Positions 1 through 14,378 of a stretch of 14,378 nucleotides of DNA are shown here, piece by piece (position 1 is the stretch's first letter; the number at the start of each line of letters is the position of its first letter). The stretch is from the UHGV virus genome UHGV-2151295; one strand, given 5' to 3'. The position numbers and the translations under genes are program-made. The notes under the pieces were generated by a model that saw only the letters and a program-made list of their open reading frames with translations, ran no database searches and had not been told where the DNA came from. Source of the stretch: a virus.

Positions 1-105
1 CTTGCCACCACCCCGCAGAACGGGCATTCCCTGCTCCTGCCAGTTCTGAATGGTACGGATACTCGCACCGAAAATGTCAGCCAGCTGCTTTTTGTTGACT
101 TCCAT
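1..105 (-). CDS. nu1: Terminase small subunit Nu1, N-terminal 35 codons (gene continues beyond left edge of window)
   Basis: Reverse-complement translation from ATG at 105..103 gives MEVNKKQLADIFGASIRTIQNWQEQGMPVLRGGGK, which I recognise as the lambda Nu1 N-terminus (winged-helix cosB-binding domain). Truncated by the window edge. Confidence 0.9.
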   Translation of the reverse strand, partial: MEVNKKQLADIFGASIRTIQNWQEQGMPVLRGGGK

Positions 106-119
106 TGTTCATTCCACGG

Positions 120-300
120 ACAAAAACAGAGAAAGGAAACGACAGAGGCCAAAAAGCTCGTTTTCAGCACCTGTCGTTTCCTTTCTTTTCATAGGGTGTT
201 TTAAATAAAAACATTAGGTTACGGCGAAGAAGAACGGAAACGCCTTAAACCGGAAAATTTTCATAAATAGCGAAAACCCGCGCGCCTTCCGCCCCGTGAG
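120..300. other. cos region (cosB plus cosN-equivalent at about 283..294)
   Basis: Sequence between the Nu1 start and position 282 matches, in reverse complement, the lambda left-end leader (CGCGGGTTTTCGCTATTTATGAAAATTTTCCGGTTTAAGGCG...) with a few substitutions. The 12 nt where lambda has its cohesive end read GGGCGGAAGGCG here on the minus strand. Confidence 0.7.
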
Positions 301-442
301 AGCTCAGGTCATCAGAAGGACCCACATTAAAGGCAGAATATTCACTCTGATATTACGCATTGTTTTGCTTTTGTAGATTCGCAATTTACGGTAAAAATCC
401 TTTTGCTATTTCTTCGTACCATAAATGCACAGGAGTATCTTA

Positions 443-763
443 ATGTCCATAAAGGTATTCAGAAGTGACCTTCAGACTGAGAGTGAATCAGACTATCGTA
501 ATTGGCTTGGCGATAATCCAGACGGATATGTTGTCAATGCATTGAAGCGAACCAGAGGTAAAGGTAATAAATCTGACGAACGCTTTACCAGAATCCATAG
601 AGCATCTTGCAAAACGATTAATCCCCTGAAACGCAAGATCGATAAAACAGGATTCACAACTGGAGATTATCAAAAAATATGCTCAACCAACTTCCTCAAT
701 GTTGAAAATGAAGCAAAGAAAATGACAGGTCTGACGAGCATCATCAAATGTCGATGCATCTAA
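443..763 (+). CDS. Hypothetical protein, 106 aa, Lys/Arg-rich, at the bor locus
   Basis: ORF track 425..763; AGGAG at 431..435 sits 7 nt upstream of ATG 443, so 443 is the likelier start. AT-rich. Same orientation as lambda bor but the sequence is not Bor (no lipoprotein signal). No family recognised. Confidence 0.45.
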   Translation: MSIKVFRSDLQTESESDYRNWLGDNPDGYVVNALKRTRGKGNKSDERFTRIHRASCKTINPLKRKIDKTGFTTGDYQKICSTNFLNVENEAKKMTGLTSIIKCRCI

Positions 764-980
764 AGCGTCCTGTAATTAACATGTTCAAAACACTCTCCGG
801 GTGACCGCTAATGCTGTTGTCAGCCAAAAACTCTACGTTTCGATTATGTCAATTTTGCACCGCCCGATGCCGATAAATGCGAAAATCCGGCGACTATGTA
901 GCGTAATCAAATCAACGAGATACCACTTTCATGAAATAATTATCATCTGTCAGTTCAATATCAATGTTGAGAGAGAATAA

Positions 981-1133
981 ATGAGAGGAATGCCAAGAGG
1001 AAGTCGAGGACAGAGGGCTGTCCAGTCAACAGCAAGAAGAGCAAGACGATCAAATGCCAGCCATTCTGACCAATTAGGATGCCTGGCACTAATCATCTTT
1101 GGCCTGATATTTATCTATTTCATGGCTAATTAG
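981..1133 (+). CDS. Putative small membrane protein, 50 aa (Arg-rich N-terminus, C-terminal hydrophobic helix)
   Basis: Translated by hand: MRGMPRGSRGQRAVQSTARRARRSNASHSDQLGCLALIIFGLIFIYFMAN, stop TAG at 1131..1133. Purine-rich GAGAGAGA upstream of the ATG. Below the ORF-track size cutoff. Uses many rare Arg codons (AGA/AGG/CGA), so it may not be expressed. Confidence 0.3.
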   Translation: MRGMPRGSRGQRAVQSTARRARRSNASHSDQLGCLALIIFGLIFIYFMAN

Positions 1134-1143
1134 CAAAGATTGC

Positions 1144-1422
1144 TCATCTTACACACTGCGTTCGAATGTATTGCTGCAAGCCTCGGATCATTTTATCACT
1201 GGTTTCAATCCGCTTTCTAAGGGTGAAATAATCCCGTTGAGCGGTGTCAGTAAGTCTGGGGCTGGCGCCATCATCCACGCCGGAGGCGGCGGTGATTTTA
1301 TGCATGTCGGGACAGACTGCATTGAAGCGCAGCCGCTTACGCCCAGCAGAAACATCAGCACGTAGACTTTCGATAACCTGCTCATTGCTGCCCCCACAAA
1401 CAGACTTCACGCTCAATCTCAC
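1144..1422 (-). CDS. rz: Spanin inner-membrane subunit Rz-like, apparently N-terminally short (92 aa, GTG start)
   Basis: C-terminal 70 aa ([15 protein letters not shown]...[18 protein letters not shown]...) align to lambda Rz. The frame has an in-frame TGA at 1431..1429, so the ORF cannot extend to encode the N-terminal TM anchor of a 153-aa Rz. Confidence 0.65.
1188..1385 (-). CDS. rz1: Spanin outer-membrane lipoprotein Rz1 (embedded in Rz, +1 frame)
   Basis: [19 protein letters not shown] lipobox followed by the proline-rich [13 protein letters not shown]...TPLNGIISP motif characteristic of lambda Rz1. ATG at 1385..1383 overlaps the endolysin stop. Confidence 0.7.
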
Positions 1423-1696
1423 GGCGAGTCATCAGCCCTTTCCATTGCTTACCGCCAGCGTATGTCCAGCGACGTAGCTGGTCACATGCGCCTTTGATAT
1501 CGCCCTGGTTTATTTTGCGAAGAAGCGTCGATGTTCTGAAATTGCCAGCACCCACGTTGTAGACGAACGAGTAAAGAGCGCCGCGCGTTGTTTCCGGTAT
1601 ATCGACTTTGATGTACGGGTTAATTTGTCTGGCGACCGTGGCAAGGTCTTTATTCAGGAGGGCTTTGCATTCTGCTTCGGTATACGTTTTAGATGG
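1382..1696 (-). pseudogene. Endolysin remnant: C-terminal about 104 codons of a GH24 (T4-lysozyme-like, R21/RrrD-type) lysozyme, with no start codon and no catalytic N-terminus
   Basis: Minus-strand translation [104 protein letters not shown]. It is in the same frame as ren and begins 2 codons after the ren TGA (1699..1697). The N-terminal about 60 aa that carry the catalytic Glu/Asp/Thr triad in this family are absent. Confidence 0.7.
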
Positions 1697-1987
1697 TCAT
1701 CTTTTAACTCCATATACTGCCAATACCCGTTTCATCGCGGCACTCTGGCGACACTCCTTAAAAATCAGGTTCGTGCTCATCTTTCCTTCCCGTTCTTCCC
1801 TGGTAGCAAACCGGTAATACACCGTTCGCCAGACCTTACCTTCGATAACCAGAAGACCTGCCCGTGCCATTTTAGCCGCGGCCTGATTTATGCTGGTTAC
1901 TGTTGCGCCTGTTAGCGCGGCAACGTCCGGCGCACAGAAGCTATTATGCGTCCCCAGGTAATGAATAATTGCCTCTTTGCCCGTCAT
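1697..1987 (-). CDS. ren: Ren protein (Rex-exclusion resistance), 96 aa
   Basis: Translation MTGKEAIIHYLGTHNSFCAPDVAALTGATVTSINQAAAKMARAG... recognised as lambda Ren; lies directly downstream of P as in lambda. Confidence 0.85.
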   Translation of the reverse strand: MTGKEAIIHYLGTHNSFCAPDVAALTGATVTSINQAAAKMARAGLLVIEGKVWRTVYYRFATREEREGKMSTNLIFKECRQSAAMKRVLAVYGVKR

Positions 1988-2685
1988 ACACTTGCTCCTT
2001 TCAGTCCGAACTTAGCTTTGATTTCTGCGATCTTCGCCAGAGCCTGTGCACGATTTAGAGGTCTACCGCCCATGACAGGAAGTTGTTTTACTGGTTCAGG
2101 GATCGCCTCACCACGGTTAATTCTCGCAGTCATATGGACAAGCTCATCTGCGGCCTTACGGCGTAATTCCGCATCAGTAAGCGCATTGGCCCGCATGTTC
2201 TGATACAGGTTGGTAATCAGCCAGTAGTGCGCGTTTGATTTCCACGGATAAGACTCCGCATCCGGATACAGGCCTCGCTTCCGGCAATACTCGTAAACCA
2301 TATCAACCAGCTCGCTGACGTTTGGCAGTCCGGCGGTAACGGATGCTTCTTCCCGGCACCATGCAACAAACTGCCCGGGTGATGGCAGAAATGGTCGATT
2401 CTGCCGACGGGCTACGCGCATTCCTGCGTTAACCTGTTCCATCGTGGTGATCCCGTTTTCCCGGAAAGCCAGCACCCACTGGCGGCGGATTTCGTTCAGT
2501 TCGTTCTGGTCCCGGTTAGCTAGGCTCGCCGGGAAAGTTGCCAGTAACTGGCTGAACACACCATTGATGATCTGCGCTACCTGTTGTACCTGCGGCTTTT
2601 CGTCGTACTGTTCCGGCATGTTGTTGGCGATCCGACGCATCTGCTCACGGTCAAAGTTAACCATCTGTGCGGCGATGTTTTTCAT
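1984..2685 (-). CDS. P: Replication protein P (DnaB helicase loader), 233 aa
   Basis: Translation MKNIAAQMVNFDREQMRRIANNMPEQYDEKPQVQQVAQIINGVF... recognised as near-identical to lambda P; 4-nt overlap with O stop. Confidence 0.95.
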   Translation of the reverse strand: MKNIAAQMVNFDREQMRRIANNMPEQYDEKPQVQQVAQIINGVFSQLLATFPASLANRDQNELNEIRRQWVLAFRENGITTMEQVNAGMRVARRQNRPFLPSPGQFVAWCREEASVTAGLPNVSELVDMVYEYCRKRGLYPDAESYPWKSNAHYWLITNLYQNMRANALTDAELRRKAADELVHMTARINRGEAIPEPVKQLPVMGGRPLNRAQALAKIAEIKAKFGLKGASV

Positions 2686-3581
2686 AAATCCACCCCGTAA
2701 ATCCAGTCAGTGTTTGTCAGGTCGAGTTTTGGTTTGCTGGCTGTCACGCCTGCCTGTTGCTTGTTACGGTTGATTTCGAGCTGGGTCCACTTGTCGCGGA
2801 GTTTGGCCGGACTCAGCACGTTACCGGACCAGAAGTTGTCCTGGCAGGCCCAGCGGAAAAGCACACACATATCGCGGTGGTTACGTCCGTCACGTTCACG
2901 CATCAGGCGGATATCGTTAGCCCACCCAGCAAAATTCGGTTTTCTGGCTGATGGCGCGATGGTCTTCACCATGTCAAACATCCACTCTGCGGCGGTCAGG
3001 TCTTCTGCTGTTCCCCACTTGCTGCCGCTCTGAATTGCAGCATCCGGTTTAACCACAGAAAGATCGTTTTCTGGCTGGTAAGAGGATTCGCCAGAATTCT
3101 CGGACGAATAATCTTTTCTTTTTTCTTTTGTAATAGTGTCTTTTGTGTCCCCCTGTTTTGAGGGATAGCAATCCCCCAATTTGAGGGATGTTTTATCCCT
3201 CGTTTTAGGGGATTTTCCCTCGTTTTGAGGGATACACCATTCTGAGATGTTTTTATTTGGTCCAAACATGCCGCCTTGCTGCTTGATAATATTCATTCTG
3301 ACGAGTTCTAACTTGGCTTCATTGCACCGTTTGACAGGTAACTTTGTAATCTCGCTAAGTTGAGAATCGGTGATTCTGTCCATTGGTTTATTCCACCCAT
3401 AGGTTTTACGCAGAATGGCAAGCAGCACTTTAAACTGTCGCTTGGTCAGATCTGCGCCCGAATAAGCCTCAAGCAGCATATTTGATAGTCTGGCGTAACC
3501 ATCATCGAGATCTGCCACATTACGCTCCTGTCCGGCAAAGTTACCTCTGCCGAAGTTGAGTATTTTTGCTGTATTTGTCAT
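2682..3581 (-). CDS. O: Replication initiator protein O, 299 aa
   Basis: Translation MTNTAKILNFGRGNFAGQERNVADLDDGYARLSNMLLEAYSGADLTKRQFKVLLAIL... recognised as lambda O; contains the ori iterons internally. Confidence 0.95.
   Translation of the reverse strand: MTNTAKILNFGRGNFAGQERNVADLDDGYARLSNMLLEAYSGADLTKRQFKVLLAILRKTYGWNKPMDRITDSQLSEITKLPVKRCNEAKLELVRMNIIKQQGGMFGPNKNISEWCIPQNEGKSPKTRDKTSLKLGDCYPSKQGDTKDTITKEKRKDYSSENSGESSYQPENDLSVVKPDAAIQSGSKWGTAEDLTAAEWMFDMVKTIAPSARKPNFAGWANDIRLMRERDGRNHRDMCVLFRWACQDNFWSGNVLSPAKLRDKWTQLEINRNKQQAGVTASKPKLDLTNTDWIYGVDL
3090..3240. repeat. ori-lambda: four about 18-bp O-binding iterons (about 3155..3236) plus adjacent AT-rich unwinding region (about 3090..3150)
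   Basis: Seen directly: tandem copies of ATCCCTCAAAAC/TCCCTCGTTTTAGGGGA-type inverted-repeat iterons (tccccctgttttgaggga, atcccccaatttgaggga, atccctcgttttagggga, ttccctcgttttgaggga), preceded by an A/T-rich tract inside the O coding sequence. Confidence 0.85.
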
Positions 3582-3591
3582 AATGACTCCT

Positions 3592-3668
3592 GTTGATAGA
3601 TCCAGTAATGACCTCAGAACTCCATCTGGATTTGTTCAGAACGCTCGGTTGCCGCCGGGCGTTTTTTA
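3592..3668 (+). ncRNA. oop: OOP antisense RNA (about 77 nt), antisense to the 3' end of cII
   Basis: Sequence gttgatagatccagtaatgacctcagaactccatctggatttgttcagaacgctcggttgccgccgggcgtttttt matches my recollection of lambda OOP RNA; ends in a GC-rich hairpin plus T6 terminator at 3662..3667. Confidence 0.7.
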
Positions 3669-3907
3669 TTGGTGAGAATCGCAGCAACTTGTCGCGCCAA
3701 TCGAGCCATGTCGTCGTCAACGACCCCCCATTCAAGAACAGCAAGCAGCATTGAGAACTTTGGAATCCAGTCTCTCTTCCACCTGCTGATCTGCGACTTA
3801 TCAACTCCTACAGCTTCCGCTGTCTTCTCAGTTCCAAGCATTGCGATTTTGTTAAGCAACGCACTCTCGATTCGTAGAGCCTCGTTGCGTTTGTTTGCAC
3901 GAACCAT
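3614..3907 (-). CDS. cII: Transcriptional activator CII, 97 aa
   Basis: Translation from the internal Met of ORF 3614..3967: MVRANKRNEALRIESALLNKIAMLGTEKTAEAVGVDKSQISRWKRDWIPKFSMLLAVLEWGVVDDDMARLARQVAAILTNKKRPAATERSEQIQMEF, recognised as lambda CII. The upstream extension of the ORF is spurious. Confidence 0.95.
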   Translation of the reverse strand: MVRANKRNEALRIESALLNKIAMLGTEKTAEAVGVDKSQISRWKRDWIPKFSMLLAVLEWGVVDDDMARLARQVAAILTNKKRPAATERSEQIQMEF

Positions 3908-3984
3908 ATGTAAGTATTTCCTTAGATAACAATTGATTGAATGTATGCAAATAAATGCATACACCATAGGTGTGGTTTAATTTG

Positions 3985-3999
3985 ATGCCCTTTTTCAGG
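3985..3999 (-). promoter_or_regulatory. nutR boxB hairpin (N-utilisation site, between cro and cII)
   Basis: Minus-strand sequence GCCCTGAAAAAGGGC: a 5-bp GC stem with a GAAAA-type loop, the canonical lambda boxB-right. Confidence 0.7.
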
Positions 4000-4025
4000 G
4001 CTGGGATGTGTAAGAGCGGGGTTAT

Positions 4026-4235
<210 letters not shown>

Positions 4236-4252
4236 TTAGTACATGCAACTAT

Positions 4253-4316
4253 TATCACCGCTAGAGGTAAAATAGTCAACACGCACGGTGTTAGATATTT
4301 ATCCCTTGCGGTGATA
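4253..4316. promoter_or_regulatory. Right operator oR1 (4253..4269), oR2 (4277..4293), oR3 (4300..4316) with divergent pR (toward cro, -) and pRM (toward cI, +)
   Basis: Three 17-bp partially palindromic TATCACCGC-type operators seen directly: tatcaccgctagaggta, caacacgcacggtgtta, tatcccttgcggtgata. pR -35 TTGACT and -10 GATAAT are visible on the minus strand. Confidence 0.85.
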
Positions 4317-4323
4317 GATTTAA

Positions 4324-5040
<717 letters not shown>

Positions 5041-5071
5041 TTGTTTTATTTTTCACGTAATAGGATGATTT

Positions 5072-5833
5072 ATGACACAGTTTCAACTTGCATTAATCGC
5101 TAGAGAAGTTGATGGAGAAGTCATCCATCTTCGCACCAAAGACGGATACATCAATGCCACCGCGATGTGCAAGTCTGCGGGGAAGCTACTTGCTGACTAT
5201 ACACGACTAAAAACAACACAAGATTTTTTTGATGAATTATCACGCGATATGGGGATTCCCATATCGGAGTTAATTCAATCATTTAAAGGCGGAAGAGCAG
5301 AGAATCAAGGGACTTGGGTTCATCCAGACATCGCAATTAATTTAGCTCAGTGGCTATCTCCAAAATTTGCAGTGCAAGTATCGAGATGGGTGCGTGAGTG
5401 GATGTCAGGTGAAAGAGCGCCTGCCGAACTCCCTATCCACCTTAAGCGGTATATGACAAACCGAGGCAGAGTTCCTCATACGCACTTTTCTATGCTTAAT
5501 GAACTGACGTTTAACTTGGTTGCGCCACTTGAACAGGCCGGATATACGCTGCCAGAAAAAATGGTCCCTGATATTTCAGAGGGTAGGGTTTTCTCGCAAT
5601 GGCTCCGTGACAACCGGGGGGTTGAGCCGAAGACATTCCCAACATATAACCATGAGTACCCAGATGGCCGGACATTCCCGGTACGTCTATACCCAAACGA
5701 ATATCTTGCAGATTTCAAACAACACTTCAACGAAGTGTGGCTGCCTCAGTACGCTCCTAAATATTTTGCTGAACGAGACCAAAGGGCATTGACGTTGATT
5801 GAGAAAATCATGCTACCTGACCTTGATTCCTAA
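5072..5833 (+). CDS. KilA-N domain protein, 253 aa, occupying the rexA/rexB position downstream of cI; candidate BstA-like abortive-infection/exclusion protein
   Basis: N-terminal about 110 aa carry the KilA-N signature (DGYINATAMCKSAGKLLADYTRLKTTQDF...ENQGTWVHPDIAINLAQWLSPKFAVQVSRWV). C-terminal about 140 aa have no fold I recognise. Same strand as cI, 31 bp downstream, followed by a strong terminator; no rexA or rexB is present. Confidence 0.8.
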   Translation: MTQFQLALIAREVDGEVIHLRTKDGYINATAMCKSAGKLLADYTRLKTTQDFFDELSRDMGIPISELIQSFKGGRAENQGTWVHPDIAINLAQWLSPKFAVQVSRWVREWMSGERAPAELPIHLKRYMTNRGRVPHTHFSMLNELTFNLVAPLEQAGYTLPEKMVPDISEGRVFSQWLRDNRGVEPKTFPTYNHEYPDGRTFPVRLYPNEYLADFKQHFNEVWLPQYAPKYFAERDQRALTLIEKIMLPDLDS

Positions 5834-5841
5834 ATGTTATT

Positions 5842-5867
5842 CCCGGCCACAGAGCCGGGTTTTCTTT
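5842..5867 (+). terminator. Rho-independent terminator ending the cI operon (timm-equivalent)
   Basis: CCCGGC(cacaga)GCCGGG hairpin followed by TTTTCTTT, 9 bp after the stop of the KilA-N gene. Confidence 0.6.
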
Positions 5868-6024
5868 GCCTCACGATCCCCCTCACCCAAGAACACATAA
5901 CCAATTGTATTTATTTGGAAATTAATAGATACAACTCACTAAACATCGCAATTCAGATCTCTCGATCACCTTCCCAATCCACACAACCCTGCAAAAAATA
6001 AATCTATATAAAAAACATACAGAT

Positions 6025-6090
6025 AACCATCTGCGGTGATAAATTATCTCTGGCGGTGTTGACATAAATACCACTGGCGGTGATACTAAG
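6025..6090 (+). promoter_or_regulatory. Left operator oL3 (6025..6041), oL2 (6045..6061), oL1 (6069..6085) and promoter pL (-35 TTGACA 6059..6064, -10 GATACT 6082..6087)
   Basis: Seen directly: ...atctgcggtgataaattatctctggcggtgttgacataaataccactggcggtgatact, the classic lambda pL/oL arrangement; oL1 taccactggcggtgata is identical to lambda oL1 as I recall it. Confidence 0.9.
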
Positions 6091-6126
6091 CACATCAGCA
6101 GGACGCACTGACCACCATGAAGGTGA

Positions 6127-6157
6127 CGCTCTTAAAAATTTAGCCCTGAAGAAGGGC
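6127..6157 (+). promoter_or_regulatory. nutL (boxA CGCTCTTAA about 6127..6135; boxB GCCCTGAAGAAGGGC 6143..6157)
   Basis: Canonical boxB hairpin with GAAGA loop downstream of pL, preceded by a boxA-like CGCTCTTA. Confidence 0.8.
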
Positions 6158-6267
6158 AGCATTCAAAGCAGAAGGCTTTGAGTAGCGCGAAATGCAGCTG
6201 CAAGACAGCAACCGTGGAGATAAGCATCACGGCGCGTTACTCAAAGCTAACTGGCAGGAGAATCCAG

Positions 6268-6591
6268 ATGGATGCACAAACACGCCGCCGCGAACGTCGC
6301 GCAGAGAAACAGGCTCAATGGAAAGCAGCAAATCCCCTGTTGGTTGGGGTAAGCGCAAAACCAGTTAACCGCCCTATTCTCTCGCTGAATCGCAAACCGA
6401 AATCACGAGTAGAAAGCGCACTAAATCCGATAGACCTTACAGTGCTGGCTGAATACCACGAACAGATTGAAAGCAACCTGCAACGTATTGAGCGCAAGAA
6501 TCAGCGCACATGGTACAGCAAGCCTGGCGAACGCGGCATAACATGCAGTGGACGCCAGAAAATTAAGGGAAAATCGATTCCTCTTACCTAG
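6268..6591 (+). CDS. N: Antiterminator N, 107 aa
   Basis: Translation from the internal ATG of ORF 6178..6591: MDAQTRRRERRAEKQAQWKAANPLLVGVSAKPVNRPILSLNRKPKSRVESALNPIDLTVLAEYH... recognised as lambda N (Arg-rich boxB-binding motif at the N-terminus). The upstream ORF extension begins at a TTG and is rejected. Confidence 0.9.
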   Translation: MDAQTRRRERRAEKQAQWKAANPLLVGVSAKPVNRPILSLNRKPKSRVESALNPIDLTVLAEYHEQIESNLQRIERKNQRTWYSKPGERGITCSGRQKIKGKSIPLT

Positions 6592-7146
6592 TTACTTAGA
6601 TATTGGCCTTGGCTTTATCTCAATATTATATGGATCATAGCTGGCAACTAATTCAGTCCAGTAAATATCCTCAATAGGGAATAATATATGCTTCCCGTTC
6701 CATCGGGAAAAAGTTTTGTTCAACACACCAAGCTCAATCAACTCACTAATGTATGGGAATTGTTTTGATGTAACCACATACTTCCTGCCTTCATTAAGGG
6801 CTGCGCACAAAACCATAGATTGCTCTTCTGTAAGGTTTTGAATTACTGATCGCACTTTATCGTTTTGCATCTTAATGCGTTTTCTTAGCTTAAATCGCTT
6901 ATATCTGGCGCTGGCAATAGCTGATAATCGATGCACATTAATTGCTAGCGAAAATGCAAGAGCAAAGACGAAAACATGCCACACATGAGGAATACCGATT
7001 CTCTCATTAACATATTCAGGCCAGTTATCTGGGCTTAAAAGCAGAAGTCCAACCCAGATAACGATCATATACATGGTTCTCTCCAGAGGTTCATTACTGA
7101 ACACTCGTCCGAGAATAACGAGTGGATCCATTTCTATACTCATCAA
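6592..7146 (-). CDS. sieB: Superinfection exclusion protein SieB, 184 aa (membrane protein)
   Basis: Translation MMSIEMDPLVILGRVFSNEPLERTMYMIVIWVGLLLLSPDNWPEYVNERIG... recognised as lambda SieB; convergent with N as in lambda. Confidence 0.9.
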   Translation of the reverse strand: MMSIEMDPLVILGRVFSNEPLERTMYMIVIWVGLLLLSPDNWPEYVNERIGIPHVWHVFVFALAFSLAINVHRLSAIASARYKRFKLRKRIKMQNDKVRSVIQNLTEEQSMVLCAALNEGRKYVVTSKQFPYISELIELGVLNKTFSRWNGKHILFPIEDIYWTELVASYDPYNIEIKPRPISK

Positions 7147-7270
7147 ACTGTAGGGGTTGTAATAGTTTATCCGATTTCTCGCTGTAGGGGTACACGAGAA
7201 CCACCGAGCCTGATGTGGTTAAAAGACAGGCACAATCTTTACTACCGCAATCCACTATTTAAGGTGATAT

Positions 7271-7357
7271 ATGGAAGAAGAATTTGAAGAGTTCGAAGAG
7301 CATCCTCAGGATGTGATGGAACAATACCAGGACTATCCGTATGACTACGACTATTGA
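7271..7357 (+). CDS. Small acidic ORF (lambda orf28-like), 28 aa
   Basis: ATG 7271, translation MEEEFEEFEEHPQDVMEQYQDYPYDYDY, stop TGA 7355..7357, overlapping the ral start; corresponds to the small ORF upstream of ral in lambda. Confidence 0.55.
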   Translation: MEEEFEEFEEHPQDVMEQYQDYPYDYDY

Positions 7358-7541
7358 TAAAAATCAATGGTGTGGACAATTCAAGCGATGCAATGGATGC
7401 AAGCTGCAATCGGAATGCATGGTTAAGCCTGAAGAAATGTTTCCTGTAATGGAAGACGGGAAATATGTCGATAAATGGGCAATACGAACGACGGCAATGA
7501 TTGCCAGAGAACTTGGTAAACAGAACAACAAAGCTGCCTGA
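7341..7541 (+). CDS. ral: Restriction alleviation protein Ral, 66 aa
   Basis: Translation MTTTIDKNQWCGQFKRCNGCKLQSECMVKPEEMFPVMEDGKYVDKWAIRTTAMIARELGKQNNKAA recognised as lambda Ral. Confidence 0.9.
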   Translation: MTTTIDKNQWCGQFKRCNGCKLQSECMVKPEEMFPVMEDGKYVDKWAIRTTAMIARELGKQNNKAA

Positions 7542-7677
7542 TAGTGGCCTTTATTTTTGGCATAAATAACAGAATAAACACTGCACTGTGTATTCATTCC
7601 AACGAGTGAATACACGGAGCAATGTCGCTCGTAACTAAACAGGAGCCGACTTGTTCTGATTATTGGAAATCTTCTTT

Positions 7678-7703
7678 GCCCTCCAGTGTGAGGGCGATTT
7701 TTT
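7678..7703 (+). terminator. Rho-independent terminator in the pL operon (tL2-like), just upstream of ea10
   Basis: GCCCTC(cagtgtg)GAGGGC hairpin followed by GATTTTTT. Confidence 0.5.
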
Positions 7704-7723
7704 ATCTATGAGGATATGAATAG

Positions 7724-8092
7724 ATGTCAAACATCAAAAAATACATCATTGATTACGACTGGAAAGCATCAATAGAAATTGAAATCGACCATGACGTAAT
7801 GACAGAGGAAAAACTTCACCAGATTAATAATTTCTGGTCAGACTCTGAATACCGACTCAATAAACACGGCTCTGTATTAAATGCTGTATTAATCATGCTG
7901 GCGCAACATGCTCTGCTTATCGCAATTTCAAGCGACTTAAATGCATATGGTGTTGTGTGTGAGTTCGACTGGAATGATGGAAATGGTCAGGAAGGATGGC
8001 CTCCAATGGATGGTAGCGAAGGAATAAGAATTACCGATATCGATACATCAGGAATATTTGATTCAGATGATATGACTATCAAGGCCGCCTGA
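7724..8092 (+). CDS. ea10: Ea10 protein, 122 aa
   Basis: Translation MSNIKKYIIDYDWKASIEIEIDHDVMTEEKLHQINNFWSDSEYRLNKHG... recognised as lambda Ea10. Confidence 0.85.
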   Translation: MSNIKKYIIDYDWKASIEIEIDHDVMTEEKLHQINNFWSDSEYRLNKHGSVLNAVLIMLAQHALLIAISSDLNAYGVVCEFDWNDGNGQEGWPPMDGSEGIRITDIDTSGIFDSDDMTIKAA

Positions 8093-8164
8093 GTGCGGCT
8101 TTACCGCATACCAATAACGCTTCACTCGAGGCGTTTTTCGTTATGTATAAATAAGGAGCACACC

Positions 8165-8329
8165 ATGCAATATGCCATTGCAGGGTGGCCTGTTGCTGGC
8201 TGCCCTTCCGAATCTTTACTTGAACGAATCACCCGTAAATTACGTGACGGATGGAAACGCCTTATCGACATACTTAATCAGCCAGGAGTCCCAAAGAATG
8301 GATCAAACACTTATGGCTATCCAGACTAA
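8165..8329 (+). CDS. cIII: CIII protein (FtsH/HflB inhibitor that stabilises CII), 54 aa
   Basis: ATG 8165; translation [54 protein letters not shown] recognised as lambda CIII. Confidence 0.9.
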   Translation: MQYAIAGWPVAGCPSESLLERITRKLRDGWKRLIDILNQPGVPKNGSNTYGYPD

Positions 8330-8441
8330 ATTCACTATCGCCACTTTTATTGGCGATGAAAAGATGTTTCGTGAAGCCGTCGACGCTTATAAAAAATGGA
8401 TATTAATGCTGAAACTGAGATCAAGCAAAAGCATTCACTAA
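8298..8441 (+). CDS. kil: Kil (host-killing, FtsZ inhibitor), 47 aa
   Basis: Internal Met of ORF 8172..8441: [47 protein letters not shown] recognised as lambda Kil; overlaps the cIII 3' end and gam 5' end as in lambda. Confidence 0.85.
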
Positions 8442-8812
8442 CCCCCTTTCCTGTTTTCCTAATCAGCCTGGCATTTCGCGGGCGATATTTTCACAGCTAT
8501 TTCAGGAGTTCAGCCATGAACGCTTATTACATTCAGGATCGTCTTGAGGCTCAGAGCTGGGCGCGTCACTACCAGCAGATCGCCCGTGAAGAGAAAGAGG
8601 CAGAACTGGCAGACGACATGGAAAAAGGCCTGCCCCAGCACCTGTTTGAATCGCTATGCATCGATCATTTGCAACGCCACGGGGCCAGCAAAAAAGCCAT
8701 TACCCGTGCGTTTGATGACGATGTTGAGTTTCAGGAGCGCATGGCAGAACACATCCGGTACATGGTTGAAACCATTGCTCACCACCAGGTTGATATTGAT
8801 TCAGAGGTATAA
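8396..8812 (+). CDS. gam: Gam (RecBCD inhibitor), 138 aa long form; GamS would start at the MNAYYIQ Met near 8516
   Basis: Translation [68 protein letters not shown]... recognised as lambda Gam. Confidence 0.9.
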
Positions 8813-8817
8813 AACGG

Positions 8818-9603
8818 ATGAGTACAGCACTCGCAACGCTGGCAGGGAAGCTGGCTGAACGTGTCGGCATGGATTCTGTCGACCCACAGGAACTGATCAC
8901 CACTCTTCGCCAGACGGCATTTAAAGGCGATGCCAGCGATGCGCAGTTCATCGCATTGCTGATCGTCGCCAACCAGTACGGCCTTAATCCGTGGACGAAA
9001 GAAATTTACGCCTTTCCTGACAAGCAGAACGGCATCGTTCCGGTGGTGGGCGTTGATGGCTGGTCCCGCATCATCAATGAAAACCAGCAGTTTGATGGCA
9101 TGGACTTTGAGCAGGACAATGAATCCTGTACATGCCGGATTTACCGCAAGGACCGCAATCATCCGATCTGCGTTACCGAATGGATGGATGAATGCCGCCG
9201 CGAACCATTCAAAACCCGCGAAGGCAGAGAAATCACGGGGCCGTGGCAGTCGCATCCTAAACGGATGTTACGGCATAAAGCCATGATTCAGTGTGCCCGT
9301 CTCGCCTTCGGATTTGCTGGTATCTATGACAAGGATGAAGCCGAGCGCATTGTCGAAAATACCGCATACACTGCAGAACGTCAGCCGGAACGCGACATCA
9401 CTCCGGTTAACGATGAAACCATGCAGGAGATTAACACTCTGCTGATCGCCCTGGATAAAACATGGGATGACGACTTATTGCCGCTCTGTTCCCAGATATT
9501 TCGCCGCGACATTCGAGCATCGTCAGAACTGACACAGGCCGAAGCAGTGAAAGCTCTTGGATTCCTGAAACAGAAAGCCACTGAGCAGAAGGTGGCAGCA
9601 TGA
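8818..9603 (+). CDS. bet: Bet (Red-beta single-strand annealing protein), 261 aa
   Basis: Translation [59 protein letters not shown]... recognised as lambda Bet. Confidence 0.95.
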
Positions 9604-10280
9604 CACCGGACATTATACTGCAGCGTACCGGGATCGACGTGAGAGCTGTCGAACAGGGGGATGATGCGTGGCACAAATTACGGCTCGGCGTCATCACCGC
9701 TTCAGAAGTTCACAATGTGATAGCAAAACCCCGCTCCGGAAAGAAATGGCCTGACATGAAAATGTCCTACTTCCACACCCTGCTTGCCGAGGTTTGCACC
9801 GGTGTGGCTCCGGAAGTTAACGCTAAGGCGCTGGCCTGGGGAAAACAGTACGAGAACGACGCCAGAGCCCTGTTTGAGTTTACTTCCGGCGTGAATGTTA
9901 CTGAATCCCCGATCATCTATCGCGACGAAAGTATGCGCACCGCCTGCTCTCCCGATGGTTTATGCAGTGACGGCAATGGCCTTGAGCTGAAATGCCCGTT
10001 TACCTCCCGGGATTTCATGAAGTTCCGGCTCGGTGGTTTCGAGGCCATAAAGTCGGCTTACATGGCCCAGGTGCAGTACAGCATGTGGGTGACACGAAAA
10101 GATGCCTGGTACTTTGCCAACTATGACCCGCGCATGAAGCGTGAAGGCCTGCATTATGTCGTGGTTGAGCGGGATGAAAATTACATGGCGAGTTTTGACG
10201 AGATGGTGCCGGAGTTCATCGAAAAAATGGACGAGGCACTGGCTGAAATTGGTTTTGTATTTGGGGAGCAATGGCGATGA
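9600..10280 (+). CDS. exo: Exo (Red-alpha 5'-3' exonuclease), 226 aa
   Basis: Translation [68 protein letters not shown]... recognised as lambda Exo; 4-nt overlap with bet. Confidence 0.95.
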
Positions 10281-10459
10281 AGCATCCTCACGATAATATC
10301 CGGGTAGGCGCGATCACTTTCGTCTACTCCGTTACAAAGCGAGGCTGGGTATTTCCCGGTCTTTCTGTTATCCGAAATCCACTGAAAGCACAGCGGCTGG
10401 CTGAAGAGATAAATAATAAACGAGGGGCTGTATGCACAAAGCATCTCCTGTTGAATTAA
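10271..10459 (+). CDS. Small protein, lambda orf60a-like, 62 aa
   Basis: [55 protein letters not shown]... in the position and orientation of lambda orf60a, immediately after exo. Confidence 0.55.
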
Positions 10460-10623
10460 GAACGAGTATCGAGATGGCACATAGCCTCGCTCAAATTGGA
10501 GTCAGGTTTGTGCCAATACCAGTAGAAACAGACGAAGAATTTCATACGTTAGCCGCATCCCTTTCACAAAAGCTGGAAATGATGGCGGCGAAAGCAGAAG
10601 CAAACGAGAGAGACCCGGCATGA
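10432..10623 (+). CDS. Small protein, lambda orf63-like, 63 aa
   Basis: [66 protein letters not shown]; position and sequence as I recall for lambda orf63. Confidence 0.6.
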   Translation: MHKASPVELRTSIEMAHSLAQIGVRFVPIPVETDEEFHTLAASLSQKLEMMAAKAEANERDPA

Positions 10624-10699
10624 CAACAACAGAATGCATTTTTCTGGCAGCGGGCTTCATATTCTGTGTGCTTATGCTTGCCGACATGGGACTTGTTCA

Positions 10700-10915
10700 A
10701 TGACACCTCAGCAAGAAAACGCCCTTCGCAGCATTGCCCGTCAGGCTAATTCTGAAATCAAAAATGCCAGACAGCAGTTTCCGGATAAAAACGTCGATGA
10801 CATTTGCCGTAGCGTACTGAAGAAGCACCGCGAAACGGTAGCGCTGATGGGATTCACACCGACTCATTTAAGCCTGGCGATCGGCATGTTAAACGGCGTC
10901 TTTAAGGAACGGTGA
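10700..10915 (+). CDS. Small protein, lambda orf61-like, about 71 aa
   Basis: Internal Met of ORF 10634..10915: MTPQQENALRSIARQANSEIKNARQQFPDKNVDDICRSVLKKHRETVALMGFTPTHLSLAIGMLNGVFKER. The upstream extension is unlikely. Confidence 0.55.
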   Translation: MTPQQENALRSIARQANSEIKNARQQFPDKNVDDICRSVLKKHRETVALMGFTPTHLSLAIGMLNGVFKER

Positions 10916-11013
10916 ACATGAAAAGCAAAATCATCAGGGAGCTACAGGCTCCTTTTTTATTGTTCGCATTCACCCTCAAGCGTATTAACCAACAATTCAG
11001 GGATTAATGAAAG

Positions 11014-11232
11014 ATGGCAGACATCATTGATTCAGCATCAGAAATCGAAGAATTACAGCGCAATACAGCAATAAAAATGCGTCGTCTGAACCACCAGGCT
11101 ATATCTGCCACTCATTGTTGTGAGTGTGGCGATCCGATAGATGAACTAAGACGTCTGGCCGTTCAGGGTTGTCGGACTTGTGCAAGTTGCCAGGAGGAGA
11201 TCGAACTTAAGAACAAACAATGGGGATTGTGA
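11014..11232 (+). CDS. TraR/DksA-family C4 zinc-finger protein, 72 aa
   Basis: Translation MADIIDSASEIEELQRNTAIKMRRLNHQAISATHCCECGDPIDELRRLAVQGCRTCASCQEEIELKNKQWGL: an N-terminal helix followed by paired CxxC motifs (C-x2-C ... C-x2-C-x2-C), typical of the short phage TraR-like members of the DksA family. Confidence 0.7.
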   Translation: MADIIDSASEIEELQRNTAIKMRRLNHQAISATHCCECGDPIDELRRLAVQGCRTCASCQEEIELKNKQWGL

Positions 11233-11279
11233 TGGCCTCAAAGCAGCAAATTTCAACATCGTCCAACTGAGGTGTAAAA

Positions 11280-11558
11280 ATGTTCAGAATCATTTTTCCT
11301 AACACCTGGTACGTCGACCACCACGGCACTCCCTGCAAAATCCTGCGTTCTACCCACAACAAAGTTCACTACATCCGAAAAGGCAGAACATGTATCGCCA
11401 GCATGTTCCGCTTTAATCATGACTTTGAACCTGTGAATAAAGCTGATGCAGATCGGATAGCAGAAGAGATCGAAACGGCAGAACACATTAAGAAGTTACG
11501 TGACATGCGTTCAAAAAGCAGAGGTAACCATGGAATCATACAGCCTCACACTCGATGA
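11280..11558 (+). CDS. Hypothetical protein, 92 aa, upstream of xis
   Basis: ORF with a GAGGTG Shine-Dalgarno 8 nt upstream of ATG 11280; no recognisable domain. The 3' end overlaps the xis start in another frame. Confidence 0.45.
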   Translation: MFRIIFPNTWYVDHHGTPCKILRSTHNKVHYIRKGRTCIASMFRFNHDFEPVNKADADRIAEEIETAEHIKKLRDMRSKSRGNHGIIQPHTR

Positions 11559-11880
11559 GGCCTGTCAGTTTCTCAAGATATCCAGACCTACCGCTACCAA
11601 CTGGATACGAACAGGCCGCCTACAGGCAACACGCAAAGACCCCACTAAACCAAAATCTCCTTACCTCACAACGCGACAAGCCTGCATTGCGGCGCTTCAG
11701 TCTCCGCTGCATACTATCAAGGTGAGCGCGGGTGATGGCATAACAGAGGAAAGAAAATGTCACTCTTCCGCAGAGGTGAAATATGGTACGCCAGTTTCAC
11801 ATTGCCGAACGGTAAAAGATTTAAACAGTCTCTTGGAACAAAGGACAAAAGGCAGGCGACAGAACTCCATGACAAGCTAA
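11530..11880 (+). CDS. xis: Excisionase Xis, P22-type, 116 aa
   Basis: Internal Met of ORF 11500..11880: [50 protein letters not shown]... recognised as near-identical to P22 Xis; 3' end overlaps the int start by about 124 nt. Confidence 0.85.
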
Positions 11881-12920
11881 AGGCTGAAGCATGGCGGGTC
11901 AGCAAACTTGGTGAAATACCTGATATAACGTTCGAGGAAGCGTGTGTCAGGTGGCTTGAAGAGAAAGCACATAAAAAATCACTGGACGATGACAAAAGCC
12001 GGATCGGATTCTGGCTTCAACATTTCGCAGGAATGCAACTAAGAGACATTACTGAATCAAAAATTTATTCAGCAATGCAGAAAATGACGAACCGGCGTCA
12101 TGAGGAAAACTGGAAACTCAGGGCAGAAGCATGCAGAAAAAAAGGGAAACCTGTTCCAGAATACACGCCAAAACCAGCGTCCGTTGCAACGAAGGCTACG
12201 CATCTTTCATTTATAAAGGCTCTGCTAAGAGCCGCAGAGCGTGAATGGAAAATGCTGGATAAGGCACCAATTATTAAAGTGCCTCAACCAAAGAATAAAC
12301 GGATCCGCTGGCTGGAGCCCCATGAAGCACAAAGGCTGATTGATGAATGTCCGGAGCCATTAAAGTCTGTTGTTGAATTTGCACTGGCAACAGGCTTAAG
12401 ACGCTCGAACATCATCAACCTTGAATGGCAACAAATAGATATGCAGCGCCGGGTGGCATGGATAAACCCGGAAGAGAGTAAATCAAACCGCGCAATTGGC
12501 GTTGCGCTGAATGATACTGCATGTCGCGTATTGAAAAAACAAATCGGGAATCATCACCGTTGGGTATTTGTGTACAAGGAAAGCTGTACCAAACCAGACG
12601 GAACGAAAGCGCCAACAGTAAGGAAGATGCGGTATGACGCAAACACAGCCTGGAAAGCGGCGCTGAGACGGGCTGGTATTGATGATTTCAGATTTCACGA
12701 CTTGAGACACACTTGGGCAAGTTGGCTGGTTCAAGCCGGAGTCCCGTTGTCAGTGTTACAGGAAATGGGAGGCTGGGAGTCTATCGAAATGGTTCGTCGA
12801 TATGCTCACCTTGCACCTAATCACCTTACCGAACACGCACGGCAAATAGACTCGATCCTAAACCCATCGGTCCCAAATTTGTCCCAGTCAAAAAATAAGG
12901 AAGGTACTAATGATGTGTAA
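11757..12920 (+). CDS. int: Tyrosine integrase, P22-type (thrW-targeting), 387 aa
   Basis: Translation [53 protein letters not shown]... recognised as P22 Int; conserved R...HxxR...Y catalytic box ([13 protein letters not shown]...MVRRYAHL) present. Stop 4 bp from the tRNA 3' end. Confidence 0.95.
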
Positions 12921-12924
12921 CTTA

Positions 12925-12970
12925 TTGATTTAAATGGTGCCGATAATAGGAGTCGAACCTACGACCTTCG
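12925..12970. other. Prophage attachment site (int-proximal att core, overlapping the 3' half of tRNA-Thr)
   Basis: Inference: the integrase gene ends 4 bp from the tRNA CCA end, and P22-type integrases recombine within the anticodon-to-3' portion of thrW. The exact core boundaries cannot be set without the second att copy, which is outside the window. Confidence 0.45.
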
Positions 12971-13000
12971 CATTACGAATGCGCTGCTCTACCAACTGAG
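12925..13000 (-). tRNA. thrW: tRNA-Thr (anticodon CGU), 76 nt including encoded CCA
   Basis: Minus-strand sequence GCCGATATAGCTCAGTTGGTAGAGCAGCGCATTCGTAATGCGAAGGTCGTAGGTTCGACTCCTATTATCGGCACCA folds as a cloverleaf by eye: 7-bp acceptor stem, GTTCGACTC T-arm, anticodon loop TTCGTAA giving anticodon CGT. Confidence 0.9.
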
Positions 13001-13124
13001 CTATATCGGCCCTGAAAGGACATGTTCACGAACGTGAATCACGGTGGACAAGGTTAAAACTAACCGGGCGATGCGTCAATGGCCTTGTGAATCAAATGGC
13101 TACTTTTGCATCACCCGGTTTTAT

Positions 13125-14378
13125 TTACGCACGAATGGTGTAATCACCAATGCCGATCCACTTGTAAGTGGTCAGTGCTTCCAGCCCCATTGGGCCACGT
13201 GCGTGCAGTTTTTGTGTGCTTACCGCCACTTCCGCACCCAGTCCAAACTGGCCGCCGTCGGTAAAACGCGTAGAGGCGTTAACGTAAACAGCGGACGAAT
13301 CCACTTCGTTAACAAAACGCTGGGCGTTGCGCATATCGCGGGTCAGGATCGCATCGGAGTGTTGCGTGCCGTGTTCACGAATATGGGCGATGGCATCGTC
13401 AAGATCGCTGACGATTTTGACGTTCAAATCTAATGACAGAAACTCATCGTCATACTCTTCGGCTTTAACCGCCACCACCTTCGCGGGGCCTGCCTGCAAC
13501 TGTGTCAGCGCAGCTGCATCTGCGTGTAATGTCACGCCGCTTTCCGCCATTTGTTTGCTTAATACGGGCAGGAAGCTATCGGCGATGTTTTTATTCACCA
13601 GCAACGTTTCTACCGTATTACATGTGCTCGGACGCTGAGTTTTGGCGTTGACGATCACTTTTAATGCTTCAGCGATCTCTGCACTTTCATCAACGTAAAT
13701 ATGGCATACGCCTATACCACCTGTGATCACCGGGATCGTCGACTGTTCGCGGCACAGTTTATGCAAACCAGCGCCACCACGCGGGATCAGCATGTCGATG
13801 TATTTATCCATACGCAGCATTTCACTGACCAGCGCACGGTCAGGATTATCAATCGCCTGCACGGCACCCGCCGGTAAGCCGCAGGATTTCAGGGCGTCCT
13901 GAATCACCGCCACCGTTGCAGCGTTAGTGCGACACGTTTCTTTGCCACCGCGCAGGATCACCGCATTACCGGTTTTCAGGCACAGCGAAGCGACATCAAC
14001 CGTCACGTTCGGGCGCGCTTCATAAATCACGCCAATAACCCCCAGCGGTACGCGACGACGCTCAAGACGCAGGCCGCTGTCCAGTACGCCGCCATCGATT
14101 ACCTGCCCCACCGGATCGGCGAGGTTGCACACCTGACGTACATCGTCGGCAATGCCTTTCAGCCGTGCGGGCGTCAGTGCCAGACGGTCAAGCATCGCTT
14201 CGCTAAGGCCATTGGCTCGCGCGTCAGCAACATCCTGGGCGTTAGCGTTGAGGATGATTTCGCTTTGTGCTTCCAGTTCATCGGCGATTTTTTCCAGCAC
14301 GCGATTTTTTTCGCGGCTGGAGAGTTGCGCTAATTTATACGAGGCTTGCTTCGCGGCAATGCCCATTTGTTCCAGCAT
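13125..14378 (-). CDS. proA: Gamma-glutamyl phosphate reductase ProA, 417 aa, start codon at the window edge
   Basis: Translation [66 protein letters not shown]... recognised as enterobacterial ProA; the proA-thrW adjacency matches the E. coli chromosome. Confidence 0.95.

Follow-up and report, generated by a model that had tools for sequence, protein, structure and literature searches.

A lambdoid prophage at Escherichia coli thrW joining a lambda-type early region to a P22/Sf-type integration module

Introduction

The Shigella flexneri phage SfI (NC_027339/JX509734) was described in 2013 as a "mosaic phage" whose early half is lambda-like. It integrates into thrW beside proA, and its block of lambda homology starts at lambda coordinate 30,418 (Table 1 of PMC3636060). 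A lambda early region coupled to a P22/Sf-type thrW integrase is thus already known, and belongs to an ordinary, previously documented kind of patchwork. Salmonella phage P22 (NC_002371) uses the same 46-bp att core as SfI. Beyond these phages, the same integration module is carried by E. coli phage phi458 (OP434518) and by the thrW prophage of E. coli 2018-10-2CC (NZ_AP027899.1), while the Nesevirus phages ev243 and 2G7b share part of it.

Here, we analyzed a 14,378-nt stretch of DNA, referred to below as the window. We consider it very probable that the window covers the int-side half of a lambdoid prophage that sits in E. coli thrW beside proA, and that this prophage is a patchwork of modules.

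Results

Two blocks of the window were aligned with lambda (NC_001416). The first (1690-5041, minus strand) corresponded to lambda 40577-37226 without gaps over 3352 nt at 98.7% identity and contained ren, P, O, cII, and cro on the minus strand, oR, and cI on the plus strand. CII and Cro were 100% identical to the lambda proteins at the amino acid level, and Ren, P, O, and CI were 99%, 99.1%, 99.7%, and 99.6% identical, respectively. The second block (6242-11209, plus strand) corresponded to lambda 35386-30418 at 98.3% identity over 4969 nt and contained N, sieB (on the minus strand), ral, ea10, cIII, kil, gam, bet, exo, orf60a, orf63, orf61, and orf73. N shared 98% amino acid identity with lambda N across residues 19-132. 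Overall, the immunity, N/nut, O/P, and Red regions and the exo-xis genes through orf73 were 98-99% identical to lambda, and each protein from ren to orf73 shared 89-100% amino acid identity with its lambda homologue, which bears out the lambda-type gene content and order proposed in an earlier note on this DNA. Five of the six 17-mer operators (oL1-3, oR2, and oR3) were identical to those of lambda, oR1 carried a single G-to-A change, and nutL and nutR were the same at every base. The CI/Cro specificity, operators, N with its nut sites, and O/P predicted from these alignments place the prophage in the imm-lambda group. SfI likewise carries lambda-type cI/cro/cII/O/P/ren and Red genes (97-98% DNA identity), but its N region differs from that of the window.

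An Rfam search of the window detected the cIII thermometer (Lambda_thermo, 8152-8210) and thrW, and nothing else. The orf61 gene (10634-10915, plus strand; PHROG 303, E 2.8e-35) was a full-length, unsplit homologue, whereas in the lambda reference an extra A in an A-run shifts the frame and splits the ORF; truncation of lambda Orf61 has already been noted (PMC8614690). In the RefSeq annotation of identical DNA, this gene starts at 10700 and encodes 71 aa. Promoter and terminator sites in 10800-13200 were no more frequent than in shuffled sequence, and the sole notable site was a terminator-like hairpin at 10936-10954 that is also present in lambda.

In contrast to lambda, the window was without rexAB, ea22, ea8.5, orf55, lambda xis/int, and the lambda attP. 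A tblastn search of the window with RexA and RexB returned no match. The place of rexA-rexB, which SfI retains, was occupied by a KilA-N/BstA-like gene (5072-5833, plus strand) that starts 32 nt past the cI stop codon and encodes 253 aa. The protein matched Pfam KilA-N over residues 13-112 (E 8e-27), PHROG 6287 "BstA abortive infection" over residues 1-252 (E 1.8e-82), and PADLOC BstA over residues 120-237 (E 2.5e-20). We see in this gene next to cI a plausible cargo for defence against phages. The 2018-10-2CC prophage, which was 99.2% identical to the window over 88% of its length, carries the BstA-like gene as well.

The att core (12935-12980) comprised 46 bp, TGGTGCCGATAATAGGAGTCGAACCTACGACCTTCGCATTACGAAT, and was equal to the 3' end of thrW; this copy, supplied by the phage, marks the int-proximal junction between prophage and host (attL by the lambda convention). 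The same 46 bp were found in P22, SfI, phi458, and Salmonella phage ABTNLsp11242 and match the published SfI attP core, and the homology of the window to SfI, P22, and phi458 ended in each case at 12980. The att arm adjoining int overlapped the 3' end of int. ARAGORN and Rfam (tRNA, 71.8 bits) identified an intact thrW, tRNA-Thr(CGU), at 12935-13010 on the minus strand. It was followed by host proA (13125-14378, minus strand), whose ORF fills the rest of the window and which is annotated as proA in matching E. coli genomes. The reported location of the prophage in tRNA-Thr(CGU) beside proA was thereby confirmed. Because the phage and the thrW 3' end share an identical core, insertion would leave an intact tRNA gene by way of the phage copy.

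Only one core was present; a further copy was sought throughout the window and none was found, the window ending inside Nu1 and the far prophage end lying beyond it. The 2018-10-2CC prophage has att cores at both ends; in this closest genome the second 46-bp core is perfect, has the same orientation as the first at a distance of 41.7 kb, and is not part of a whole tRNA. In Shigella Sf phages and P22 the int-xis-attP module is always linked to gtr genes, and SfI carries them beside attP; it could thus be supposed that this phage converts the O-antigen serotype like SfI and P22, with gtrABC beside attP at the far end. However, the E. coli relative that shares this module has, at its far end, genes for an AraC-family regulator and a GIY-YIG protein together with an IS remnant, and no gtr, and we regard serotype conversion as improbable here.

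At the opposite end, the first 282 positions corresponded to lambda 13-295 at 96.5% identity, and positions 1-330 (minus strand) comprised the 5' end of Nu1 (1-105), cosB, and a variant cosN, whose 12-nt cohesive end is GGGCGGAAGGCG compared with GGGCGGCGACCT in lambda. This cosB/Nu1 region is lambda-like, unlike in SfI, which has SfV-like myovirus structural genes and a different cos, and in 2018-10-2CC, whose prophage has another terminase and head-tail set, not of the lambda cos/Nu1 type, and is without ea10.

Between the cos end and ren, two deletions were recognized. The larger one was located at 1690, where a 3' fragment of a GH24 (RrrD-type) lysozyme gene (1382-1690, minus strand; positions 34-125 of 125 of Pfam PF00959) abuts the ren stop codon. 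Compared with NZ_AP027899.1, 2,757 bp containing ninB, ninE, ninF, ninG, Q, two tRNAs, the holin gene, and the 5' end of the lysozyme gene are gone. The PF00959 match upheld the description of the remnant as a GH24 lysozyme rather than the lambda R transglycosylase and, with it, the presence of a non-lambda lysis module on this side of the prophage. The second deletion (200 bp, at 1375) removed the first ~70 codons of the Rz spanin gene, leaving its 3' part (1144-1375, minus strand; Pfam Phage_lysis positions 51-125 of 126). Its limits are given by E. coli SF-468, in which window 1-1375 corresponds to L012 2501-3875 and window 1374-1691 to L012 4076-4393. In contrast to the window, the nin-Q-lysis region is complete in SfI, phi458, and 2018-10-2CC.

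An exact 55-nt pattern across the ren/lysozyme joint had no match in GTDB species representatives, IMG/VR, or JGI metagenomes, and none of the complete E. coli genomes spanned the joint. Because the 1690 joint occurs in none of these collections, as would be the case for a mis-assembly, an error of assembly there or at 1375 may be suspected from the sequence alone. If so, or if the joints were harmless variants, the prophage could be intact and inducible, and its immunity, replication, Red, and int/xis genes are indeed all intact. However, both joints are clean, and their flanks match relatives at 96-99.9% right up to the breakpoints. Internally deleted thrW prophages also exist in finished genomes, such as PK8276. 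Moreover, lambda-type late transcription or lysis is impossible without Q, a holin, and a complete endolysin. An intact prophage is therefore very unlikely, and we favor the reading that the deletions are real and that lytic growth is defective.

The integration side of the window contained three genes. The first (11280-11558, plus strand) encodes a 92-aa protein of unknown function. It had been listed simply as an unknown ORF; the ORF is present, but its family can be assigned, namely Pfam DUF4222 (PF13973, E 1.9e-19; PHROG 285). The protein shared 97.8% amino acid identity with SfI gp30, and a 74%-identical copy was located upstream of int in the P22-like phage ABTNLsp11242; neither lambda nor P22 itself had a counterpart. 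The second gene, xis (11530-11880, plus strand), encodes a P22-type excisionase of 116 aa (Pfam HTH_17; PHROG 2907, E 8e-52) that was identical to P22 Xis at 102 of 116 residues (87.9%) and shared 98.3% identity with SfI Xis. It overlapped the third gene, int (11757-12920, plus strand), by 124 nt, with identical geometry in P22. The 387-aa Int is a tyrosine recombinase of the P22/Sf thrW type and matched Pfam PF00589 at full length (E 3e-48). It was identical to P22 Int at 348 of 387 residues (89.9%), compared with 99.2% identity to SfI Int and 24% to lambda Int, and its catalytic set (R215, K242, H314, R317, W340, and Y349, aligned to the catalytic residues of lambda Int) was complete. By homology, both proteins are probably functional and their genes probably expressed. 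An orthologous Int, an overlapping Xis, and a thrW core beside proA together point to an integration module of the P22/Sf thrW type.

As to the origin of this module, xis and int of P22 are orthologous to those of the window and overlap in the same way, the P22 core is identical, and P22 int likewise ends ~15 nt from it. It might thus be thought that the module was recently taken directly from P22, and xis and int had been called near-identical to those of that phage. This was an overstatement. DNA identity to P22 over 11513-12980 was 80.9% and fell to 67-79% over most of int, whereas the xis/int DNA of SfI, SfII, SfIV, and SfV of S. flexneri and of E. coli phi458 was 97-99% identical to that of the window; phi458 reached 99.3% across 11210-12980. 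In addition, P22 has eaC upstream of xis instead of the DUF4222 gene, and its immC/immI, genes 18/12, erf/abc, and pac headful system have no counterpart in the window. A direct P22 source was rejected on these identity values and is extremely improbable. Since the nearest Sf phages and phi458 themselves carry P22-type thrW integrases, the check for a closer lineage outside the P22 type left the assignment unchanged, and the joining of a P22-family xis-int-attP module to a lambda-type immunity, replication, and Red region stands.

The position of the joint was determined from the boundary of the blast block and base-by-base alignment. It lay at 11209/11210 (lambda coordinate 30418), within a gene (11014-11232, plus strand) for a 72-aa zinc-finger protein of the TraR/DksA family (Pfam PF01258, zf-dskA_traR, E 1.7e-8, 34.7 bits against a cut-off of 24.9; PHROG 54), 23 nt upstream of its stop codon. 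As the lambda homology runs to 11209 inside this gene, the TraR-like gene belongs to the lambda part of the mosaic; it is orf73 of lambda itself, which is left without annotation in NC_001416. The protein was identical to that of lambda ORF 30392-30613 at 64 of 72 residues, and all but two of the differences were within the last 12 residues, past the joint. The earlier note had the zinc-finger gene and the 92-aa ORF replacing lambda ea8.5/ea22; the second half of this claim holds, and the first does not. Past 11209, the DUF4222 gene, xis, int, and the 46-bp att core follow in that order, and only these three genes stand in for lambda ea22-ea8.5-xis-int. In a test of whether the 11209 joint arose by recombination within a traR-like gene shared with P22-like phages, the TraR gene of Salmonella phage ABTNLsp11242 proved too diverged to tell, giving no blastn match over orf73.

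The translation of orf73 contains a C4 zinc finger (CxxC-x17-CxxC; C35-x2-C38 and C56-x2-C59) and the same N-terminus as lambda Orf73 (MADIIDSAS), with acidic D3 and D6 present; the phage-yield effect of lambda Orf73 is lost in D3A and D6A variants (PMC9239242). RNA polymerase binding and inhibition of rRNA promoters have been shown biochemically for the lambda protein (PMC9239242), from which the one encoded here differs in its last 12 residues.

SfI shares orf73, the DUF4222 gene, xis, int, and attP with the window at 98.1% identity over 10718-12980, including the breakpoint at 30,418, the identical core, and the position in thrW next to proA, although SfI has extra genes between orf60a and orf73. 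The segment 10950-13120 was present in one piece (at least 80%) in 171 of 5,426 complete E. coli genomes, once at 100% identity, and all 5,426 had some match to the window. A chimeric assembly from two prophages, for which nothing specific speaks beyond the general fact that mosaic joints can look like chimeras, was rejected and is next to impossible at the lambda/P22-type junction, because the same joint recurs in these 171 independent finished genomes as well as in two phage isolates, SfI and phi458.

ev243 and 2G7b matched the window at 87-100% (30-nt bins) from exo through orf73 and the DUF4222 gene to about codon 80 of xis. From ~11790 on, in contrast, their int was ~70% identical in DNA (72% in amino acids), and their att core corresponded to the 3' end of a different tRNA. 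This divergence of int and att core past ~11790 indicates that the xis/int overlap holds one more joint.

Discussion

The prophage combines two main modules. The first is a lambda-type early region with cI/cro and oL/oR, N and its nut sites, O/P, Red, and the exo-xis genes to orf73. The second is a DUF4222-xis-int-attP integration unit of the P22/Shigella Sf type, attached at lambda 30,418 (window 11209/11210). Further swaps have put the BstA-like defence gene in place of rexAB and brought in the GH24 lysis cassette. The BstA-like gene and the two late/lysis deletions distinguish the window from SfI. The joint between the lambda and Sf-type modules was inherited and is older than the source strain, being common to SfI, phi458, and ~3% of complete E. 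coli genomes. By analogy with the P22 and SfI systems, Int would exchange strands inside the 46-bp core common to the phage and the thrW 3' end, and Xis together with Int would run the reaction backwards. Lytic growth is very probably defective, the deletions having taken nin-Q-holin and the 5' ends of the lysozyme and Rz genes.

The window is a textbook case of module exchange among lambdoid phages, and its importance lies mostly in correct annotation. We recommend the name lambda orf73 (TraR family) for the zinc-finger gene and, for the integrase, the label SfI/P22-type, specific for thrW. A flag as defective is also warranted for the prophage, which lacks Q and the holin and has neither a complete endolysin nor a complete Rz. 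More tentatively, and with considerable doubt on our part, the xis/int overlap near 11790 might be a recurrent exchange point, the same orf73-DUF4222-xis left part being joined to a thrW-type integrase here and to one for another tRNA in ev243/2G7b, and a related, equally doubtful idea is that the host keeps a lysis-dead prophage as a carrier of the BstA-like gene. If the overlap is a recurrent exchange point, a single N-terminal DNA-binding part of Xis would serve diverged integrases.

Gene content of the prophage end

Everything to the left of 12980 is phage DNA. The only tRNA gene found in the window by ARAGORN, tRNA-Thr(CGU) (thrW, 12935-13010, minus strand), is followed on its right by the proA ORF (13125-14378), identified from the annotation of matching E. 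coli genomes; all complete E. coli genomes searched (5,426/5,426) matched the window. From the left end, the 5' end of Nu1 and cos (1-330) are followed by a 112-aa ORF (425-763), a 5'-truncated Rz (1144-1375), the 3' fragment of a GH24 lysozyme gene (1382-1690), ren-P-O-cII-cro on the minus strand, cI, and a KilA-N/BstA-like gene. Rightward of the latter lie N, sieB, ral, ea10, cIII, kil, gam, bet, and exo, then orf60a, orf63, orf61, and orf73, with the DUF4222 gene, xis, int, and the att core as the rightmost phage elements. The earlier note had interpreted this arrangement as a mosaic of a lambda-type early region joined to P22-type int/xis at thrW. The observation was largely correct and its headline interpretation holds, but the joint was mis-described and the identity to P22 overstated.

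Lambda-derived early region

Blast comparison with lambda revealed two long collinear blocks, 1690-5041 (lambda 40577-37226, 98.7%, gapless) and 6242-11209 (lambda 35386-30418, 98.3%), and a 91% patch covering oL/pL at 5842-6180. CII, Cro, SieB, Ral, Ea10, and CIII were 100% identical to the lambda proteins, followed by O (99.7%), CI and Bet (99.6% each), P (99.1%), and Exo and Gam (approximately 97%). oL1-3, oR2, oR3, nutL, and nutR were also identical to lambda. Together, the blocks, proteins, and sites confirm that the immunity, replication, and Red functions are of lambda type. The cIII thermometer RNA element was present. Among the six operators, only oR1 (4253-4269) differed, by one G-to-A change (TACCTCTAGCGGTGATA vs. 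TACCTCTGGCGGTGATA in lambda). When the lambda proteins were compared with the window, RexA, RexB, Ea22, Ea8.5, Orf55, lambda Xis and Int, and NinB had no counterpart.

The place of lambda rexA/rexB is taken by a gene directly downstream of cI (5072-5833, plus strand), which encodes a 253-aa KilA-N protein strongly matching abortive-infection proteins of the BstA family (PHROG 6287, E 1.8e-82; PADLOC BstA, E 2.5e-20). Prophage defence by this family has been described (PMC8585504), and the protein is likely to be anti-phage defence cargo expressed in the lysogen. E. coli 2018-10-2CC (NZ_AP027899.1), whose thrW prophage is otherwise the closest, also carries the gene there. That prophage lacks the ea10 region (7706-8105), which is as in lambda in the window, so that the two differ in this small module too.

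orf61 (10634-10915, plus strand; PHROG 303) is full length in the window. In the alignment, one extra A in the lambda reference, in the A-run near 10768, breaks the gene into two, orf61 and a 60-codon ORF that lacks annotation; the truncated state of lambda Orf61 has been remarked on (PMC8614690).

The joint lies inside orf73

Base-by-base alignment showed near-perfect identity to lambda up to 11209 (lambda 30418) and unrelated sequence beyond, placing the joint within the ORF at 11014-11232, 23 nt short of its stop codon. This ORF matches Pfam PF01258 (34.7 bits; cut-off 24.9), and lambda 30392-30613 holds the same zinc-finger ORF, which is not annotated in NC_001416; the gene, lambda orf73, encodes a homologue of TraR by which host transcription is reprogrammed (PMC9239242). 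The window and lambda proteins are identical at 64/72 positions, and all but two of the differences fall in the last 12 residues, past the joint. The zinc-finger gene therefore belongs to the lambda side and replaces nothing, so the proposal that a TraR/DksA-like gene had displaced lambda genes was not borne out. Instead, lambda ea22-ea8.5-orf55-xis-int is replaced by the DUF4222 gene and P22-type xis and int.

Integration module

Homology to P22 began at 11513, 17 nt upstream of the xis start codon, and continued to 12980, with a DNA identity of 80.9% (86-91% in xis and the int 5' end, 67-84% in the remainder of int). At the protein level, Int was 89.9% (348/387) and Xis 87.9% (102/116) identical to P22, vs. 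24% for Int against lambda Int; on alignment, the two did not prove closer to a non-P22 lineage. As in P22, xis (116 aa) overlaps int (387 aa) by 124 nt, and the int stop codon lies 14 nt from the 46-bp core. Both frames are intact, and the Int catalytic residues R215, K242, H314, R317, W340, and Y349 are all present. The module is thus P22-type but not "near-identical to P22", as had been stated, because its nearest relatives are much closer: E. coli phage phi458 (99.3% DNA identity), Shigella flexneri phage SfI (98.7% DNA; Int 99.2% and Xis 98.3% aa), and SfIV, SfV, and SfII (97-98% DNA).

The 92-aa ORF upstream of xis encodes a DUF4222 protein (Pfam; PHROG 285) with no match in lambda or in P22 itself; the P22-like Salmonella phage ABTNLsp11242 carries a diverged copy and a traR-like gene upstream of int. 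In ev243/2G7b-type phages, orf73, the DUF4222 gene, and the first ~80 xis codons are 87-100% identical to the window (30-nt bins), whereas past ~11790 int is only ~70% identical (72% aa) and another tRNA provides the 3' end that serves as att core. The drop in identity and the different tRNA core reveal one more joint where xis and int overlap (~11790), which marks a point of exchange within the integration module.

Attachment site

All phage homology ends at 12980, and 12935-12980 is the 3' 46 nt of thrW, indicating that the phage supplies the tRNA 3' end and thrW stays intact. This core is identical in P22, SfI, phi458, and ABTNLsp11242 and exactly matches the published SfI attP/attL/attR core (PMC3636060). 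The window, which ends in Nu1, contains one copy only. In NZ_AP027899.1, the closest finished genome (99.2% identity across 88% of the window), all 46 bp of the core recur without mismatch 41.7 kb from the first copy and in the same orientation; this second copy is outside any whole tRNA, and the sequence diverges directly after it. The thrW integration model predicts such an arrangement, which supports the model by analogy for the prophage in the window. From what is known of recombination in lambda, P22, and SfI, Int would recombine attP with thrW inside the 46-bp identity and Xis would direct excision. The leftward early transcript would express int and xis, and here would also carry orf73 and the DUF4222 gene.

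Late region and cos

The late region carries two damaging deletions. The one at 1690 brings the ren stop (1697) up against lysozyme codon ~64 and amounts to 2,757 bp in comparison with NZ_AP027899.1, comprising ninB, ninE, ninF, ninG, Q, two tRNAs, the holin, and the first ~63 GH24 codons at the lysozyme 5' end. This joint was found in 0/5,426 E. coli genomes and was absent from GTDB representatives, IMG/VR, and JGI metagenomes. At 1375, 200 bp are gone relative to E. coli SF-468, including the first ~70 Rz codons and the last lysozyme codons, and Rz1 is probably also affected. Identity to SF-468 was 99.93% on the left and 95.9% on the right, implying that 1375 is a mosaic boundary as well. 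Neither late transcription nor lysis should be possible for this prophage. The thrW prophage of strain PK8276 has still more extensive deletions.

Lambda content had been proposed to begin at cos. This was true of cosB and the Nu1 5' end (1-282; lambda 13-295, 96.5%), but the 12-nt cohesive-end sequence in cosN (~283-300) is GGGCGGAAGGCG vs. lambda GGGCGGCGACCT, and beyond cosN the DNA as far as ren is non-lambda. The variant cos also occurs in several E. coli prophages (>99% identity). The 425-763 ORF, at the lambda bor/moron position, is on the plus strand, whereas the late genes are on the other; the SF-468 annotation lists its product as a hypothetical protein, and Pfam, PHROG, and PADLOC gave no match.

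Prevalence of the architecture

SfI inserts into thrW beside proA, shares its attP core with SfII, SfV, SfX, and P22, and has been termed "a mosaic phage" with a lambda-like early and regulatory half (PMC3636060). Its lambda homology block begins at 30,418 (Table 1 of PMC3636060), the same breakpoint as in the window. The segment orf73-DUF4222-xis-int-thrW (10950-13120) was found in one piece in 171/5,426 complete E. coli genomes, one of which matched it at 100% identity. The SfI precedent and this frequency indicate that the joint is old and inherited rather than an event of this strain, and the lambda/P22-type architecture is an ordinary one that was already known.
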